From a phage, in NCBI GenBank assembly GCA_012646845.1, contig GCA_012646845.1_4707.3: 28,542 nt of DNA; one strand, given 5' to 3'. The first letter of the stretch is position 1; each line of letters begins with the position of its first letter. The translations under genes were made by a program, and so were the position numbers. The notes under the pieces were generated by a model. It was not told the origin of the DNA. It searched no databases and worked only from the letters and a program-made list of their open reading frames with translations. Below are positions 42 through 26,349 of this stretch, piece by piece.

Positions 42-1730
42 TTAGGCTCCACGAGGTCCCGTTAAGTTGCGTAATAGGAACGCAACCGTATCGTAACCAA
101 TATCAATGTTGAATTTATTTTTACCACTTACCCAGAAAGCTCGCTTCTTGTGCGAGTTGGTAATTTCGTCAATGGCTTCCATGGAATAAAGAACGTTAAC
201 CGAGACCGTATCACCATCAAAGTCCCCACCAAGTCCGGCGAGGTATGGGGCAGGAACAATAGTAGTTTCTACGAACGAGGCATTAGGTAACCAGTCGGGG
301 TATTCCCATGCGATAAATCGTTCATCCGTTATTGGTTCCCAGTTACTATCCAGTTCGGTTTTCGGTTTTGCCGCAACGGTTGTACGCGCGTAACAGGTTA
401 ACGGGATAACGGATTGCATACCGGATACCGGATAACGTGTTACCATCGCAGCCAGGTTATTCCAGTACTTATATCCGGCAATATAGATAAGCTCGGTGTA
501 AGTAATGGGGTGAACATCCGCACCAGGCTTATTCAGCATCTCCGGAGGTAATTCACTCATGCCACGGAATAACCGAAACGAATCATTATTTACATAGACG
601 AGACAAAGATATCGTCCATTAACCATGATAGGTTCGTTACGCACGCCCGGATCGCTTAAGGTATTCAATAAGCGTTCTATTCCGTCCCATGTTGTAAAGT
701 CATCGATGGTGTCTGGATCAAGCGTAACACGTTCACGTTCCATCGTTTCGGTATCAATAAGTTCAACTTCTGTAACATCACGGACAAATATTTCCTGCAA
801 AATCCCCGTACGTAACGCATGTTGCGTTACAGGGAGAGCAGCTTTACTCATCTGGTATAACCCTAACTGAACTGCGGTACAGGAAGGCTGGTTAGGCGAC
901 CCTAGTACCTCTGTTGTGGGGTTAATTGCCGAAATAACGTTACGGGTTGAGTTCCAAACACGACGTGAGCCGAACTTCCCTTGGAAGATCCCTTTCTTAC
1001 CTTGGAACATGTCCAACAACAAAGCGTAGATATCGTTAAATGTTCTCTGTAAGCTCCAGCGCTGGCCGTCGTAAACGGGATCAGAATAATCTTTTAATCC
1101 ATCAGGGACGGTGTTGGAAATTGCAAGGAAACGACGATACAACTCCGTGATTTCTTGCTCGCTTTCATACCCGCCTTCTTTTACTTCTATTTCACGTAAA
1201 CCCGCAGGTAAAACCAGTAAGTGACGGGTCATCGCTTTGAACATGTTCTCTTCGACAACTTTAATTCGTAGCTCTCGTTGAGCTGAACCCGTTGAAACGA
1301 ACTTAATATCAGCTACGTGCTGTGCAAAGAACCCGTATCCTGTTTGTCCTGTTAACGCATCAGACGCAACGAAGTCGCGTTGTTCAGGATCCCAACGAGC
1401 GTACGCCTTTCCTGACATGATATCACCATAGAGGTGTTTTAGTCGAATGAGGCGGTCGTAAATGACAGGGTGCAGGATTTCAACCTTGCATTCAATCACC
1501 GCAAATCGACGGTCTCGGTCTTCACTGCCCGCACTACCAAAGATGGTGTAAGAATAGAAACCATCATCGTGGAAATTACCGGTGCTTGGGTCACGAATGC
1601 TCATGCTCGTGATCTTGGGGAGAAAACGTAACTGTTGTTTATCGAGGTGCAAAATGCTAATATTAAACGGCTCTCTGACTTTAGCCATGGAGACACTCCT
1701 CTTTACCACCACCGGCTGCGGCGGTATCAT
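42..1730 (-). CDS. Multisubunit RNA polymerase beta-prime-like subunit, N-terminal fragment (phage-encoded split RNAP)
   Basis: 562-aa ORF. The C-terminal region contains GGDFDGDTVSVNVLYSMEA (encoded around nt 212-226), matching the universal beta-prime active-site motif NADFDGD...V.V....EA. Strong SD (AAGAGGAG) about 7 nt upstream of the ATG at 1730. Confidence 0.7.
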   Translation of the reverse strand: MIPPQPVVVKRSVSMAKVREPFNISILHLDKQQLRFLPKITSMSIRDPSTGNFHDDGFYSYTIFGSAGSEDRDRRFAVIECKVEILHPVIYDRLIRLKHLYGDIMSGKAYARWDPEQRDFVASDALTGQTGYGFFAQHVADIKFVSTGSAQRELRIKVVEENMFKAMTRHLLVLPAGLREIEVKEGGYESEQEITELYRRFLAISNTVPDGLKDYSDPVYDGQRWSLQRTFNDIYALLLDMFQGKKGIFQGKFGSRRVWNSTRNVISAINPTTEVLGSPNQPSCTAVQLGLYQMSKAALPVTQHALRTGILQEIFVRDVTEVELIDTETMERERVTLDPDTIDDFTTWDGIERLLNTLSDPGVRNEPIMVNGRYLCLVYVNNDSFRLFRGMSELPPEMLNKPGADVHPITYTELIYIAGYKYWNNLAAMVTRYPVSGMQSVIPLTCYARTTVAAKPKTELDSNWEPITDERFIAWEYPDWLPNASFVETTIVPAPYLAGLGGDFDGDTVSVNVLYSMEAIDEITNSHKKRAFWVSGKNKFNIDIGYDTVAFLLRNLTGPRGA

Positions 1731-13087: not shown

Positions 13088-13111
13088 CCTTCATGACAGT
13101 CATCATGAAGG
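13088..13111. promoter_or_regulatory. Perfect inverted repeat (9-bp arms, 6-bp spacer) in a divergent intergenic region; candidate operator
   Basis: CCTTCATGA-cagtca-TCATGAAGG between the minus-strand start at 13019 and the plus-strand start at 13153. A TAATAT hexamer follows at 13112-13117. Confidence 0.35.
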
Positions 13112-13152
13112 TAATATAGTCCTGTTATTTTTTTCAATACGGAGAATGTAAA

Positions 13153-21086: not shown

Positions 21087-21638
21087 TTACCGATTACCGT
21101 CAGTTGACGTTGGTTGATTGCGATCGATTTTCATTGACCGTAATTTTCCACCATTAGTTACACACTGATTGCGCTGTTCGACGGAGGCCAGACTGTTACA
21201 GACATAATAAGTATCGATAAAACGCTCAACGCGTTCTTGAAACTTCCTCCCGGCAACTTGTTCTTTTTCAAAAGTTCGTAATGCACGATCGACCTCACCT
21301 TGGAGAATCCGGTTCTGTTCAACCATACTGTCGATTAAACGGCCTCGCACTTCGTTCGATGTGTAGAGTTGATGAATCAGTTCTCGGTTGGTGTCTCGCG
21401 CATAGCGCAATGTTGTATTTTCCTGACGTAAACTATTCGCCTCAGCCATCAAGGTAAAGATTTTTTCGCCAGCAAATAACGTCACGATACCCAACACGAT
21501 GAAAAAACCCGTAATCAAGAATATCGAGGACTGTCGAGCTCCATCTCGACGATAGCGTGTGGGTGGTCGCTTACTTCGCCGAAACAACTCGCGAAGAAAA
21601 GGGAAAAGCCAGGGCAACGCCTTGAGTGTAGTAAACAT
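21087..21638 (-). CDS. Membrane protein with N-terminal TM helix and long predicted coiled coil (i-spanin-like architecture)
   Basis: ORF track extends to 21929 and would overlap the divergent gene. I prefer the ATG at 21636-21638 (MFTTLKALPW...) with AAGGA SD. Hydrophobic segment IFLITGFFIVLGIVTLFAG is followed by heptad-like charged helical sequence. Confidence 0.5.
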   Translation of the reverse strand: MFTTLKALPWLFPFLRELFRRSKRPPTRYRRDGARQSSIFLITGFFIVLGIVTLFAGEKIFTLMAEANSLRQENTTLRYARDTNRELIHQLYTSNEVRGRLIDSMVEQNRILQGEVDRALRTFEKEQVAGRKFQERVERFIDTYYVCNSLASVEQRNQCVTNGGKLRSMKIDRNQPTSTDGNR

Positions 21639-23662: not shown

Positions 23663-23668
23663 CATATT

Positions 23669-23700
23669 CCCTCCTCCTTCCCTCACGGGTTGGAGGAGGG
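23669..23700. terminator. Two-tier hairpin (conserved core, copy 2)
   Basis: CCCTCCTCC-TT-CCC-TCAC-GGG-TT-GGAGGAGGG, 7 nt after the TAA stop at 23662. Confidence 0.5.
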
Positions 23701-23714
23701 TTATGCTGTCAAGC

Positions 23715-23763
23715 AAAAAAAAAAAATGATAGTCACGGACCCTCCAATGAAGGAGGGTCGTGA
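23715..23763 (-). terminator. Intrinsic terminator for the convergent minus-strand gene
   Basis: Hairpin GTCACGGACCCTCC-aatgaa-GGAGGGTCGTGAC (23733-23763), followed on the minus strand by a 12-nt U tract (plus-strand A12 at 23715-23726). Confidence 0.65.
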
Positions 23764-23772
23764 CCGTCAGTT

Positions 23773-24474
23773 TTAGGATGTAGATAATCTCGCGTACTTC
23801 TGGCGAACATGGTTCTTACGGCGAACTTCGTCATCCTCGTCACGCCATTCGAGGTAAGCAACGAATCGACGTAACTGTGCTGCTGTCATCGTTGACGATC
23901 GGTCTTCTACATCTAGAACGACGTAACGAACGCCACCAACATCATCGCAATCAACGTAATTGAATACCATAAGACCATCACTGTATTCAACGACGGTAAC
24001 TTCGAACCGTTTCTCGAACAAATAAAACAGTTCCGATTCGATGATCATCGGAATGACGCATATATCAGCACGATCGAGGATTTCCATCATCACCCGTAAC
24101 GCGCGAGGAGTATGGCGAGCGAACTGACCGTTAAAACGTTGTCTCATTGCTTGTTCCACGCCATCTGTTTTTGTTCCAAACCAAGGACGTATTACAGATT
24201 TCGGTGGTGTGAGACGAAAGCGATATGCCTGTATAAACAACAGAATATCAGCGACGTTAGGAAATTCTTCCTGGTCTTCGTATATCTTGCGGATAATATC
24301 CGGAATCGTAACCATCAAGTATTTCTTATCGCCTCCCACTTTCTCGAGATTAGCAATATGCCCTTCTACTACTGGCTGGTAAACGAAATTATACCAATGA
24401 CGGTATCTTGCGGCACGCTGGTAGTTCGGGATAAAATTAAGAACAACATTCACTGCACGTTTTAACGGGTTCAT
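23773..24474 (-). CDS. Hypothetical protein (233 aa)
   Basis: ATG at 24472-24474 with AAGGA SD. Track uses TTG 24477. Confidence 0.7.
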   Translation of the reverse strand: MNPLKRAVNVVLNFIPNYQRAARYRHWYNFVYQPVVEGHIANLEKVGGDKKYLMVTIPDIIRKIYEDQEEFPNVADILLFIQAYRFRLTPPKSVIRPWFGTKTDGVEQAMRQRFNGQFARHTPRALRVMMEILDRADICVIPMIIESELFYLFEKRFEVTVVEYSDGLMVFNYVDCDDVGGVRYVVLDVEDRSSTMTAAQLRRFVAYLEWRDEDDEVRRKNHVRQKYARLSTS

Positions 24475-24488
24475 CAAAAGGTTCCTTC

Positions 24489-24902
24489 TTATGTTTTAAT
24501 ATGCACATCGTCAATCCCCTCGGTAATCCAGCCGATGGGAAGGACAATCGTTGTTATCGTGTTATGGGTGTAGGGATTAAGAAAATGGAAATAGTAATTT
24601 TTGTTAGACTGTTCGATGCGTAGCTCGAGCTGCGCGTCTTCAGGTAACCGCAACCAAGCACCGTACAGTTCATTAAACTTACGCTGAATTTTACCCGGGT
24701 TCATTGGAACCCTACGACCACGATGGCGTAACTGACGTAATGATTCAATCAAACACTCAGAGATACCCATTACCGTTCCGTTATCGCTTGTATCAATAAC
24801 GATGAACTCATGTGACCCGCGGCCATGATAGAATCCAGCAACAAGCGCAACGGCGACAACGACAACCGTACCGATACCTACGTACCAATAGTAAACGTCC
24901 AT
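24489..24902 (-). CDS. Small membrane protein (137 aa), N-terminal TM helix
   Basis: ATG at 24900-24902 (MDVYYWYVGIGTVVVVAVALVAGFY...) with GAGG SD. Track uses TTG 24923. Confidence 0.6.
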   Translation of the reverse strand: MDVYYWYVGIGTVVVVAVALVAGFYHGRGSHEFIVIDTSDNGTVMGISECLIESLRQLRHRGRRVPMNPGKIQRKFNELYGAWLRLPEDAQLELRIEQSNKNYYFHFLNPYTHNTITTIVLPIGWITEGIDDVHIKT

Positions 24903-24913
24903 AACAGCCTCAC

Positions 24914-25441
24914 TTATACCCAATAGTCGGCGAGCGGTTTCACCTTATTAATGGGTAACTGTACCTTACCGATGTTCTCTACATCCGCATCAGCGTAGAG
25001 AACGATTTTATCGTCGTCTCTTTCCCAACGAATAATAAATCGACCAGGAAGAAGATTACCCTGTTCAAGAGATGCTGTAACCTGTTGTGTTAAAACAGAC
25101 AACCAAGCAGGCATCAGTGTTGCAATATCTAAGTCGTTTGACCACTCAGCACGTTGCTCCACCGGGCGTAACATACGTTCGACGGTGCGTTGAACCGTTG
25201 CGGTGATATAGCCTTTATCTTCGTCACTGATTGGATCAGGGCGAGACACGAAACGTTCAGCAGGTTTACGGGAAATATGCTCATGTAAATCGATGAGTGG
25301 TGTTGTCATAGTACTCGCTCCATCAGAATGTAATTGGGTAACCCGTAGGGTTGTCTGCATGCTATTCAGAAGCGCAAAAGCGCCATAAACAACAACGATA
25401 CCAAGTATAGCCAAAACAGAAATCATTAACGTGTATTGCAT
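24914..25441 (-). CDS. Small membrane protein (175 aa), N-terminal TM helix
   Basis: ATG at 25439-25441 (MQYTLMISVLAILGIVVVYGAFALL...) with AGGGGAG 6 nt upstream. Track uses TTG 25489. Confidence 0.6.
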   Translation of the reverse strand: MQYTLMISVLAILGIVVVYGAFALLNSMQTTLRVTQLHSDGASTMTTPLIDLHEHISRKPAERFVSRPDPISDEDKGYITATVQRTVERMLRPVEQRAEWSNDLDIATLMPAWLSVLTQQVTASLEQGNLLPGRFIIRWERDDDKIVLYADADVENIGKVQLPINKVKPLADYWV

Positions 25442-25479
25442 TGTCATCTCCCCTACATACGCATCTTGAAGATCGGTTA

Positions 25480-25536
25480 AAAACAACAAAAGAAAAAACG
25501 ATATAAAGCAAGGTCCTCTGATATCAGAGGACCTTG
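25480..25536 (-). terminator. Intrinsic terminator between minus-strand genes
   Basis: 28-nt perfect palindrome CAAGGTCCTCTGATATCAGAGGACCTTG (25509-25536), preceded on the plus strand by an A-rich run that gives a U tract on the minus-strand transcript. Confidence 0.55.
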
Positions 25537-25542
25537 GATCAA

Positions 25543-26199
25543 TTAGCTTGCAGCTTCTTCATTTGTATCAGGTTTGCTTCCCCCTAACAAACCGTCAAAC
25601 AGACCCGTATGTTTCAGGTAGAAGAGAGCGATAGCGCCCATTGCTGCTGCGCTCGTCGCCGTTAACGCAACCCCGGCACGATACTGCCATTTACGGTCGG
25701 GCTTTTGATCAAGAGCCATACGACGCATGTATTCAGCCTCTGCCTCATTCCGATGAATTTCGGATTCAGCCAAGCGGGCTAAGGTATCGCGGTCAAGGTT
25801 ATCATAACGTACGTTCATGGTGGTTTCCTCTTGTTTGGAAGTTGATTGCTTAGTGGATTCTTGGTCAATAGTCGTTTCAGATGGTTCAAACGGCTGGTTG
25901 TTCATTTTCTGATCTTTATTGGTCATGATAGACTCCTTCGATTTTTGAGACGAAATTGATTTAAACCATCGTGGATGGCGGTATTCAGTTTTACATGTGC
26001 AGTTAAGTTTCTCGTGCAGGAAAGCGTAAAAACGTTTTGCGCCTACACGTAAGGCTTTCAGCATTACCCATCCACGAGCACTCAAACGGTGTAGCTGTTG
26101 CGGTATGTCTAGTTTCCTAGCCAAGCGAAAGTATCTTTCAATCACTTCGATAGGAAACCATTGTTGTTCCACATCGGTGAGACTGAAAGTCTTATCCAT
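25543..26199 (-). CDS. Hypothetical protein (218 aa) with basic N-terminal region and C-terminal TM helix; may be two genes
   Basis: ATG at 26197-26199. An internal in-frame ATG at 25924-25926 (MTNKDQK...) has a strong AAGGAG SD, so a shorter 128-aa product is possible. C-terminal hydrophobic segment VALTATSAAAMGAIALFYL. Confidence 0.55.
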   Translation of the reverse strand: MDKTFSLTDVEQQWFPIEVIERYFRLARKLDIPQQLHRLSARGWVMLKALRVGAKRFYAFLHEKLNCTCKTEYRHPRWFKSISSQKSKESIMTNKDQKMNNQPFEPSETTIDQESTKQSTSKQEETTMNVRYDNLDRDTLARLAESEIHRNEAEAEYMRRMALDQKPDRKWQYRAGVALTATSAAAMGAIALFYLKHTGLFDGLLGGSKPDTNEEAAS

Positions 26200-26349
26200 G
26201 AATGAAATCTCGCTGGCTTACTTCACTTAAGTAATATAGCCGTGAAAAATGTTGGATTAAGTTAAATACTGCAACCGTAACTGATTTTATGGGCTTTTAG
26301 CCTAAACCAATCATCTTCGGAATCATCATCTTTGAAACAGGAACCTATC

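Follow-up and report, generated by a model that had tools for sequence, protein, structure and literature searches.

A four-gene block behind an early-type promoter in a Goslar-like jumbo phage, with three predicted single-pass membrane proteins

In phage T4, the superinfection exclusion proteins Imm and Sp and the antiholin RI are small bitopic inner-membrane proteins that are early, non-structural and non-essential, and Sp and RI act through periplasmic domains. Goslar is the Escherichia coli model for nucleus-forming phages, and the present analysis concerns a 28,542-nucleotide (nt) stretch of related phage DNA (NCBI GenBank assembly GCA_012646845.1, contig GCA_012646845.1_4707.3), referred to below as the window. 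Its subject is a block of four minus-strand genes at 23773-26199, which an initial annotation made from the letters alone had described as a cluster of small membrane-anchored proteins of a kind often concerned with lysis timing, superinfection exclusion or host takeover. The block is tentatively read here, at somewhat less than even confidence, as a genus-restricted accessory unit that acts early at the host inner membrane in takeover, exclusion or counter-defence rather than in end-of-cycle lysis. The promoter motif, the layout of the unit, the selection acting on it, a distant counterpart of its two middle genes (gp3-gp2) and the presence of a trace of gp3 only in the virion are new observations.

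Other described systems come from the jumbo phage PhiKZ. Its gp142 is a proven holin and the founder of class IIIB, which is defined by one N-in/C-out helix, a large cytoplasmic domain and a small periplasmic tail; it is regulated by the cytoplasmic gp143, and its N-domain is dispensable for hole formation (PMC12894885). In jumbo phages that encode RNA polymerases, a detectable AT-rich motif of ~10 nt near -10 marks the early operons of the virion polymerase (PMC7598289), a T-rich element lies upstream of the -10 motif in such promoters (PMC7598289, PMC8244752), and the PhiKZ shell gene PHIKZ054 has an early promoter of this type (PMC8244752). The intrinsic terminators of PhiKZ share the conserved tail BYTTATKYYGT (PMC10914365).

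Gene layout, promoter and terminators

On nucleotide identity, the window is assigned to a Goslar-like chimallivirus. The DNA around the block is 93.3% identical to that of Escherichia phage vB_EcoM_Goslar, a nucleus-forming jumbo phage (Chimalliviridae) infecting E. coli, and the remaining window is 95.7% identical; the earlier attribution to a phage was right, the phage being Goslar-like at 93-96% nucleotide identity. The window straddles the arbitrary start point of the Goslar record. All four open reading frames (ORFs) previously listed for the block are present and correspond to Goslar gp1-gp4, each annotated "hypothetical protein"; the names gp1-gp4 are used below for their homologues in the window. 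With gene starts chosen by the best ribosome-binding site (RBS), the products comprise 233, 137, 175 and 218 amino acids (aa), the same lengths as in Goslar. In the direction of transcription, the features are as follows.

26216-26263, minus strand: early-promoter-like motif (k-mer enrichment and weight-matrix scan)
25543-26199, minus strand: gp4 homologue, 218 aa (ORF and RBS)
25924-25938, minus strand: internal AAGGAG and ATG (Met92) in gp4, in frame, read from the sequence
25495-25536, minus strand: T1, internal intrinsic terminator or attenuator (hairpin 25509-25536 and tail CTTTATATCGTTTTTT)
24914-25441, minus strand: gp3 homologue, 175 aa (ORF and RBS)
24489-24902, minus strand: gp2 homologue, 137 aa (ORF and RBS)
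23773-24474, minus strand: gp1 homologue, 233 aa, soluble, closing gene of the unit (ORF and RBS)
23715-23769, minus strand: T2, terminator after gp1 (14-pair bulged hairpin and 12-T run)

A unit ordered as promoter, gp4, hairpin with a PhiKZ-type TTAT tail, gp3-gp2-gp1 and strong terminator is well supported. All relatives with a listed gene order, down to a gp1 identity of 70%, have the identical 218-175-137-233 layout, and across 14 Goslar-like loci the promoter, the hairpin and the gene ends align and the gene-end peptides are conserved. Purifying selection acts on all four genes, with ratios of nonsynonymous to synonymous substitution (dN/dS) of 0.03-0.27 across relatives, as compared with 0.05-0.07 for two adjacent core genes. 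By these ratios and the same layout in the relatives listed, gp1-gp4 are real genes. Synonymous divergence (dS) is uneven over the block, reaching 0.7-0.8 in gp3 as opposed to ~0.2 in its neighbors, and this unevenness suggests that the block has undergone allele exchange.

The early placement of the unit derives from the DNA ahead of gp4. K-mer enrichment on Goslar upstream regions picked out ATATTACT, and alignment of its occurrences extended the motif to a T-rich stretch followed by TTCACGGC, TATATTAC and TTANGTGA. A weight-matrix scan of Goslar (237 kb) returned 12 sites, all on the minus strand and all but one intergenic by RefSeq annotation (11 of 12), including one that lies 80 nt ahead of the ATG of the nuclear-shell gene chmA. 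The gp4 site ranks second of the 12 (58.2 bits), and its copy in the window is identical, with the core TATATTAC at 26231-26238, the T-rich stretch and TTCACGGC upstream, TTAAGTGA downstream and 31 nt between the end of the core and the gp4 ATG. A 21-nt core (CATTTTTCACGGCTATATTAC) is invariant in 14 relatives and the 30 nt just upstream vary freely. The architecture of the site, as judged from its letters, agrees with that described for the virion-RNA-polymerase early promoters of chimalliviruses. Since the motif matches those published promoters and also precedes chmA, gp4 is inferred to be an early gene, and an early-type promoter directly ahead of it favors an early function such as takeover or exclusion. 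RNA-seq of Goslar found 175 of 249 genes expressed by 5 min after infection. The motif derived here provides a simple and usable predictor of early operons in Goslar-like genomes.

The short leader that joins the promoter core to the gp4 ATG (26200-26230, minus strand; AAGCCAGCGAGATTTCA) is likewise invariant in the 14 relatives and has no good Shine-Dalgarno sequence; the strong AAGGAG sits inside the gene before Met92 rather than in the leader, and control of gp4 translation may be unusual. A second copy of TTCACGGC-TATATTAC-TTANGTGA in the window (13111-13118, minus strand, 43.8 bits) is found upstream of the gp200 homologue, and copies in Goslar also precede gp182, gp159, gp105 and gp214; the gp182 protein is likewise anchored at its N-terminus, and its 30-nt promoter is near-identical. 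Two other candidate promoter signals were discarded: the TATG ahead of gp3, considered as a late-type start, is replaced by TGTG in three relatives, and a sigma-70 scan gave one weak match against 5.8 expected.

Between gp4 and gp3-gp1, the palindromic terminator that had been proposed at 25509-25536 proved real. Its hairpin has a 12-bp stem and a 4-nt loop (-22.7 kcal/mol, z = -6.3 versus shuffles), its core (AAGGTCCTCTGATATCAGAGGACCTT) is invariant in 14 relatives with the outermost stem pair varying in two loci, and the Goslar record annotates it as a putative terminator. The hairpin is followed by CTTTATATCGT, which fits the PhiKZ tail at 10 of 11 positions. Because the U-run of T1 is interrupted, partial read-through into gp3-gp2-gp1 is plausible. 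The terminator that closes the unit, T2, is stronger still (-28.2 kcal/mol, z -7.2, with a 14-pair bulged hairpin and a 12-T run) and exhibits two compensatory pair changes and a flipped loop among relatives. It stands back to back with the terminator of a convergent gene, DUF7194. This latter terminator (23663-23735, plus strand) consists of CCCTCCTCC...GGAGGAGGG followed by TTATGCTGT, an almost perfect fit to the PhiKZ intrinsic-terminator motif, and carries an extra CCCCATCCTC insertion in some relatives. An Rfam scan of the window returned no RNA family.

Predicted membrane proteins

The initial annotation placed a single hydrophobic helix in three of the four products, N-terminal in those of 137 and 175 aa and C-terminal in that of 218 aa, and hydropathy agrees. 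Helices were located by hydropathy and insertion energy and orientations were derived from charge counts alone. The helix of gp2 spans residues 6-24 (nt 24831-24887) with a Kyte-Doolittle 19-residue mean of 2.20, that of gp3 residues 7-25 (nt 25367-25423) with a mean of 2.67, and that of gp4 residues 177-195 (nt 25615-25671) with a mean of 1.76, the last being borderline and rich in Ala/Gly/Ser/Thr; in gp1 the hydropathy scan found no hydrophobic helix. Summed Hessa insertion energies of the Goslar orthologues are -0.67 (gp2), -2.55 (gp3) and +1.09 (gp4) kcal/mol, and helix substitutions among relatives swap hydrophobic for hydrophobic residues. A comparable helix is present in ~10 of roughly 250 Goslar genes by the same scan over the whole genome, and three neighboring helix genes in a row have a permutation P of ~0.012. 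Three of the four genes thus appear to encode single-pass membrane proteins.

The most conserved member of the block is gp4, which is 99% identical to Goslar gp4 and has a dN/dS of 0.03-0.15. It consists of a basic N-domain (residues 1-82, isoelectric point (pI) 10), a variable polar linker, an amphipathic helix, the C-terminal helix and a 23-residue acidic tail, and a homologue of 76% identity (locus L013) retains every one of these elements, with in-frame indels confined to the linker. The helix is preceded by KPDRKWQYR and followed by the acidic tail, and by the charge rule gp4 is predicted to be tail-anchored with an N-in/C-out orientation. Within the gene, the AAG GAG and ATG at Met92 are retained in all seven loci compared (the window, L001, L013, L018, L019, L022 and L023, thereby including the 76%-identity homologue), and the codons around this start vary among them. 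Met92 could be a second start that yields a 127-aa isoform with the anchor only.

These properties of gp4 also admit a rival explanation, in which the block is a non-orthologous lysis-control cassette and gp4, like PhiKZ gp142, a "class IIIB" holin or else an antiholin of that type. The Met92 start would then produce a short gp4 blind to its regulator, gp1 would play the part of PhiKZ gp143 as a regulator in the cytoplasm, and gp3 and gp2, anchored in the membrane, would serve in lysis timing or lysis inhibition. This explanation is considered rather unlikely, but several observations speak for it. By the charge rule gp4 has a single N-in/C-out helix, a large N-domain and a small C-tail, as class IIIB holins do; its helix is as weak and as rich in Ala/Gly/Ser/Thr as that of gp142 (1.09 versus 1.26 kcal/mol), and its internal Shine-Dalgarno and ATG are conserved. 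In five Pseudomonas chimalliviruses the lysis cassette directly follows RuvC, and Goslar RuvC (gp10, E 1.3e-16) is codirectional with the block and upstream of it, separated from it by gp9, gp8 and an inversion of three genes. In the seoulvirus Lh1B an annotated endolysin is found in the block converging on DUF7194, which is the position of gp1-gp4 here. Persistent infections are also the main source of known Goslar-like phages, and lysis inhibition has been proposed for such infections.

Sequence comparison, however, argues against membership in the known lysis families. All pairings with the PhiKZ holin, i-spanin and regulator families gave hhalign probabilities below 1% (0.6% for gp4 with gp142), BLASTP of gp4 against gp142 gave E 0.28 over 20 residues, and by tblastn the gp142 family is confined to 65 Pseudomonas phage records. 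No endolysin lies in or beside the block, the annotated Goslar endolysins gp24 and gp98 being ~16 and ~108 kb away, and no muralytic domain was found in gp1-gp4. An all-frame lipobox scan of Goslar returned gp88 as the only credible lipoprotein and none embedded in or adjoining the block. The i-spanin plan is not seen in gp2 or gp3, which have neither a basic N-terminus nor a coiled coil in their low-confidence models. A holin placed behind an early-type promoter would carry a risk of lysing the cell prematurely in the Goslar cycle, in which about half of the cells visibly infected are lysed by ~105 min. Other helix-bearing candidates are moreover available in Goslar (gp85, gp94, gp182 and gp189). 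The comparison with holin and spanin families that had been proposed for the block thus leaves gp4 with the gross topology of class IIIB, but with no homology, endolysin or lipoprotein partner.

An o-spanin embedded in gp3 was considered and rejected, as the +1-frame ORF loses its Met in one relative (L016) and its Cys in another (L002). Elsewhere in the window, the gp189 homologue (21087-21638, minus strand, 183 aa) has a very basic N-terminus, one strong transmembrane helix and a long helical C-terminal part that is coiled-coil-like and has two Cys at its end; this plan is i-spanin-like and makes it a better spanin candidate than gp2 or gp3, but no lipoprotein gene follows it. It occupies a conserved position beside RNase H. 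Outside the window, the SleB-like endolysin gp98 of Goslar (110508-111005) carries a typical cleavable signal peptide (…PFSQA/SV), and gp88 (97923-98426) has the lipobox LSLGGC, yet is reported as abundant and virion-associated.

The two middle genes resemble each other in plan. In gp3 (dN/dS 0.11-0.14) the helix ends in an invariant GAFALLN and is followed by a low-confidence linker and a helix-helix-strand-strand-strand-helix domain. In gp2 (dN/dS 0.10-0.19) an acidic 5-residue N-tail precedes the helix, GRGS(H/R)E follows it, and a domain of the same helix-helix-strand-strand-strand-helix order completes the protein; because of the acidic N-tail and the Arg just past the helix, an N-out/C-in orientation is favored and gp2 probably adopts it. 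In the AlphaFold models of both proteins, the anchor leads through a low-confidence linker to two helices, three strands and then a short helix, so that small globular alpha/beta domains rather than coiled coils are predicted. Fold searches with these models gave no confident match, and the two-helix, three-strand sandwich suggested by fold recognition was set aside as functional evidence, being too generic. The two were also compared as possible paralogues: despite the shared order of secondary structure, gp2 and gp3 have an hhalign probability of 0.06% with each other and no BLASTP match.

Remote homology links the two genes in another manner. With gp2 as the query, a full HMMER search through 1.84 billion representatives detected a sole remote relative (P0037, 36% identity, E 4.6e-7), which retains the gp2-type anchor and charge pattern. 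It is encoded on L017, a Logan contig of 1490 bp (ERR12350021_85635) which probably derives from an unsampled related jumbo phage. The ORF just upstream of it there is homologous to gp3 (30% identity; E 4e-9 by phmmer against a small database), and the ORF downstream is unrelated to gp1. Given this distant occurrence of gp3 and gp2 as neighbors, they are a conserved pair, and the two probably function as one. Past its third ORF the contig closes with GCAGTATTACTATGATAG, a sequence similar to the core of the Goslar promoter. When viral, metagenome and genome contig collections were scanned with the gp2 profile, the distant relative did not turn up on any longer contig.

Distribution and virion status

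Searches of Pfam, PHROGs, NCBIfam and PADLOC gave no significant match for any of the four proteins, and no PDB sequence matched gp1 or gp4, the two for which the PDB was searched; the best hit of a family search with gp1 was NucS at E 0.13, which is not significant. A tblastn search with all four against 50,697 phage genomes found only Goslar, large protein searches found only Goslar-like relatives together with the one distant gp2 homologue, and no paralogues of gp1-gp4 exist elsewhere in Goslar. The closing gene, gp1, has a dN/dS of 0.16-0.27. Its relatives reach down to 58% identity, and the contigs of P0027, P0031 and P0033 show the same Goslar-like layout. The gp1 of the window is also 100% identical to proteins filed under Shigella flexneri and Salmonella enterica assemblies, which fits the persistent-infection origin of Goslar-like phages, 59 of the 60 known having been recovered from bacterial assemblies as "persistent" infections.

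The convergent neighbor DUF7194 is present in 288 chimallivirus records, and the genes beside it in Lh1B, Kc263 and Noxifer differ from those in the window and have no helices. Transfer of function by synteny was rejected, as unrelated genes stand beside DUF7194 in Lh1B, Kc263, Noxifer and a PhiKZ-like phage. These differing neighbors, together with the uneven dS, point to gp1-gp4 as lineage-specific (genus-restricted) accessory genes in a variable slot. Elsewhere, the window (215-223, compared with Goslar 211748-213798) is without a 2,051-bp insertion in the RNA polymerase beta-subunit region; in Goslar this insertion is a group I intron with the HNH endonuclease gp206, and in the window the gene is continuous (ORF 42-1730), an intron-less allele.

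The restricted distribution bears on a further alternative, in which the unit serves the vesicle of early phage infection (EPI), for example through a basic cytoplasmic gp4 domain that retains RNA, ribosomes or nascent chimallin on the membrane of the vesicle. Early transcription takes place inside this lipid vesicle with polysomes nearby, and the route by which mRNA leaves it is unexplained; gp4 has a promoter of the same class as chmA, is predicted to be tail-anchored with an N-domain of pI 10 and is the most conserved protein of the block. Against this, EPI vesicles are found across Chimalliviridae whereas no relatives of gp1-gp4 are detectable beyond the Goslar lineage, other chimalliviruses hold unrelated and helix-free genes at the syntenic positions, and the Goslar EPI-vesicle and virion papers make no mention of gp1-gp4. 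Such a role is regarded as highly improbable, but would be important if true.

The virion data bear on one more alternative, that the products of the block are structural proteins, of the virion or injected, with their hydrophobic segments hidden inside the particle. In favor of this, one gp3 peptide was detected in purified Goslar virions, and several lysis proteins of the PhiKZ family were formerly annotated as virion proteins by mass spectrometry. The single peptide, however, corresponds to 0.17-0.41 copies of gp3 per virion in the Goslar mass spectrometry table (Table S4), which equals the level of the non-virion RNA polymerase and of a methyltransferase, and gp1, gp2 and gp4 are absent from that table. 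Nor are gp1-gp4 found among the 28 modelled Goslar virion proteins or the abundant unmodelled ones. The four are thus shown not to be structural virion proteins, and the chance that the structural reading is right is close to nil. An outcome that would have counted against the initial annotation, homologues known as soluble virion proteins, is not what was found. Detection of the gp3 peptide implies that gp3 is at least translated.

Proposed early role and comparison with known systems

The preferred reading remains that of an early accessory unit acting at the cytoplasmic face of the host's inner membrane. Transcription of gp4 by the injected virion RNA polymerase would begin within minutes of infection, and the hairpin would pass a fraction of transcripts, leaving gp4 in excess over gp3, gp2 and gp1. 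The proteins would insert in the host inner membrane, with at least gp4 and gp2 facing the cytoplasm, gp3 and gp2 would act jointly as a membrane-anchored pair, and at an early stage the unit would bind or block a target of the host that lies close to the membrane.

A number of points weigh against this reading. No homology or experiment assigns a function, and takeover/exclusion is a wide category, arrived at in part by eliminating others. The timing of gp4-gp1 is deduced from the motif; two operons with the same motif include the abundant virion-associated gp158 and gp214, so the motif may not mean "early only", and no promoter is assignable to gp3-gp1, whose timing would depend on read-through. 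The orientation of gp3 is ambiguous, there being no charged residue ahead of its helix, and its invariant AFA could be a signal-peptidase site, which would make gp3 periplasmic. The models of gp2 and gp3 are of low confidence (predicted local distance difference test (pLDDT) 60-64). Finally, the gross topology of gp4 matches a proven class of jumbo-phage holins, and the Goslar holin and spanins are not identified. Among the roles first suggested for the block, canonical holin or spanin membership has thus fallen away and the early-type promoter favors takeover or exclusion, with lysis control still live.

If the genes are ordinary accessory exclusion factors, the result is a routine one. The block nevertheless supplies a short and concrete list of candidates for two membrane gaps in Goslar biology, namely a protein of the vesicle and the holin and spanins. 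To our knowledge, no phage protein is known in, or acting on, the lipid vesicle in which the genome is kept during the first minutes. It is distinctly improbable, but conceivable, that gp4 (possibly with gp3-gp2) is the first integral membrane component encoded by a phage in the early infection pathway of chimalliviruses, or else that the block is a lineage-specific lysis-inhibition switch. As a pathway component, gp4 would be made from the first transcripts and would lie in or near the EPI vesicle membrane, tethering RNA, ribosomes or the nascent shell or blocking a second vesicle; as part of a switch, it would contribute to a lysis inhibition that underlies the persistent infections typical of Goslar-like phages.

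Compared with T4 Imm, Sp and RI, gp2-gp4 are likewise small membrane proteins of a virulent E. coli phage, non-structural and accessory. They differ from Sp and RI in that the domain of gp2 is cytoplasmic by its charge pattern, that of gp3 being ambiguous, and gp1-gp4 have no Pfam or PHROG match to described exclusion or antiholin families. No exclusion phenotype is known for them, and Goslar co-infection is seen to give cells that contain two nuclei. Compared with lambda Rz/Rz1 and PhiKZ gp141/gp141.1, gp3 and gp2 are similarly adjacent, N-terminally anchored and 137-175 aa in length; unlike two-component spanins, they are predicted to form helix-helix-strand-strand-strand sandwiches, no lipobox gene accompanies them, and hhalign with the i-spanin family stays below 1%.

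In relation to PhiKZ gp142/gp143, gp4 and gp142 belong to phages of the same family and both have a weak helix rich in small residues, a basic stretch before it and a short periplasmic tail; a soluble protein, gp1, is encoded in the unit, and gp4 is located loosely downstream of RuvC. In contrast, gp4 is longer (218 versus 131-143 aa), has a disordered linker and an early-type promoter, shares no sequence or profile similarity with gp142 and adjoins no endolysin or spanin pair; a holin role would be by analogy only.

The comparison with the early units of PhiKZ concerns transcription. The Goslar motif was computed here without experimental mapping and has 12 sites, as against 28-32 in PhiKZ. 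Like those units, gp4 has an AT-rich extended -10-like motif and an upstream T-run ahead of it and a TTAT-tailed hairpin behind it, and it forms a one-gene unit, such units making up about a quarter of the transcription units mapped in a study that included PhiKZ (PMC10914365).

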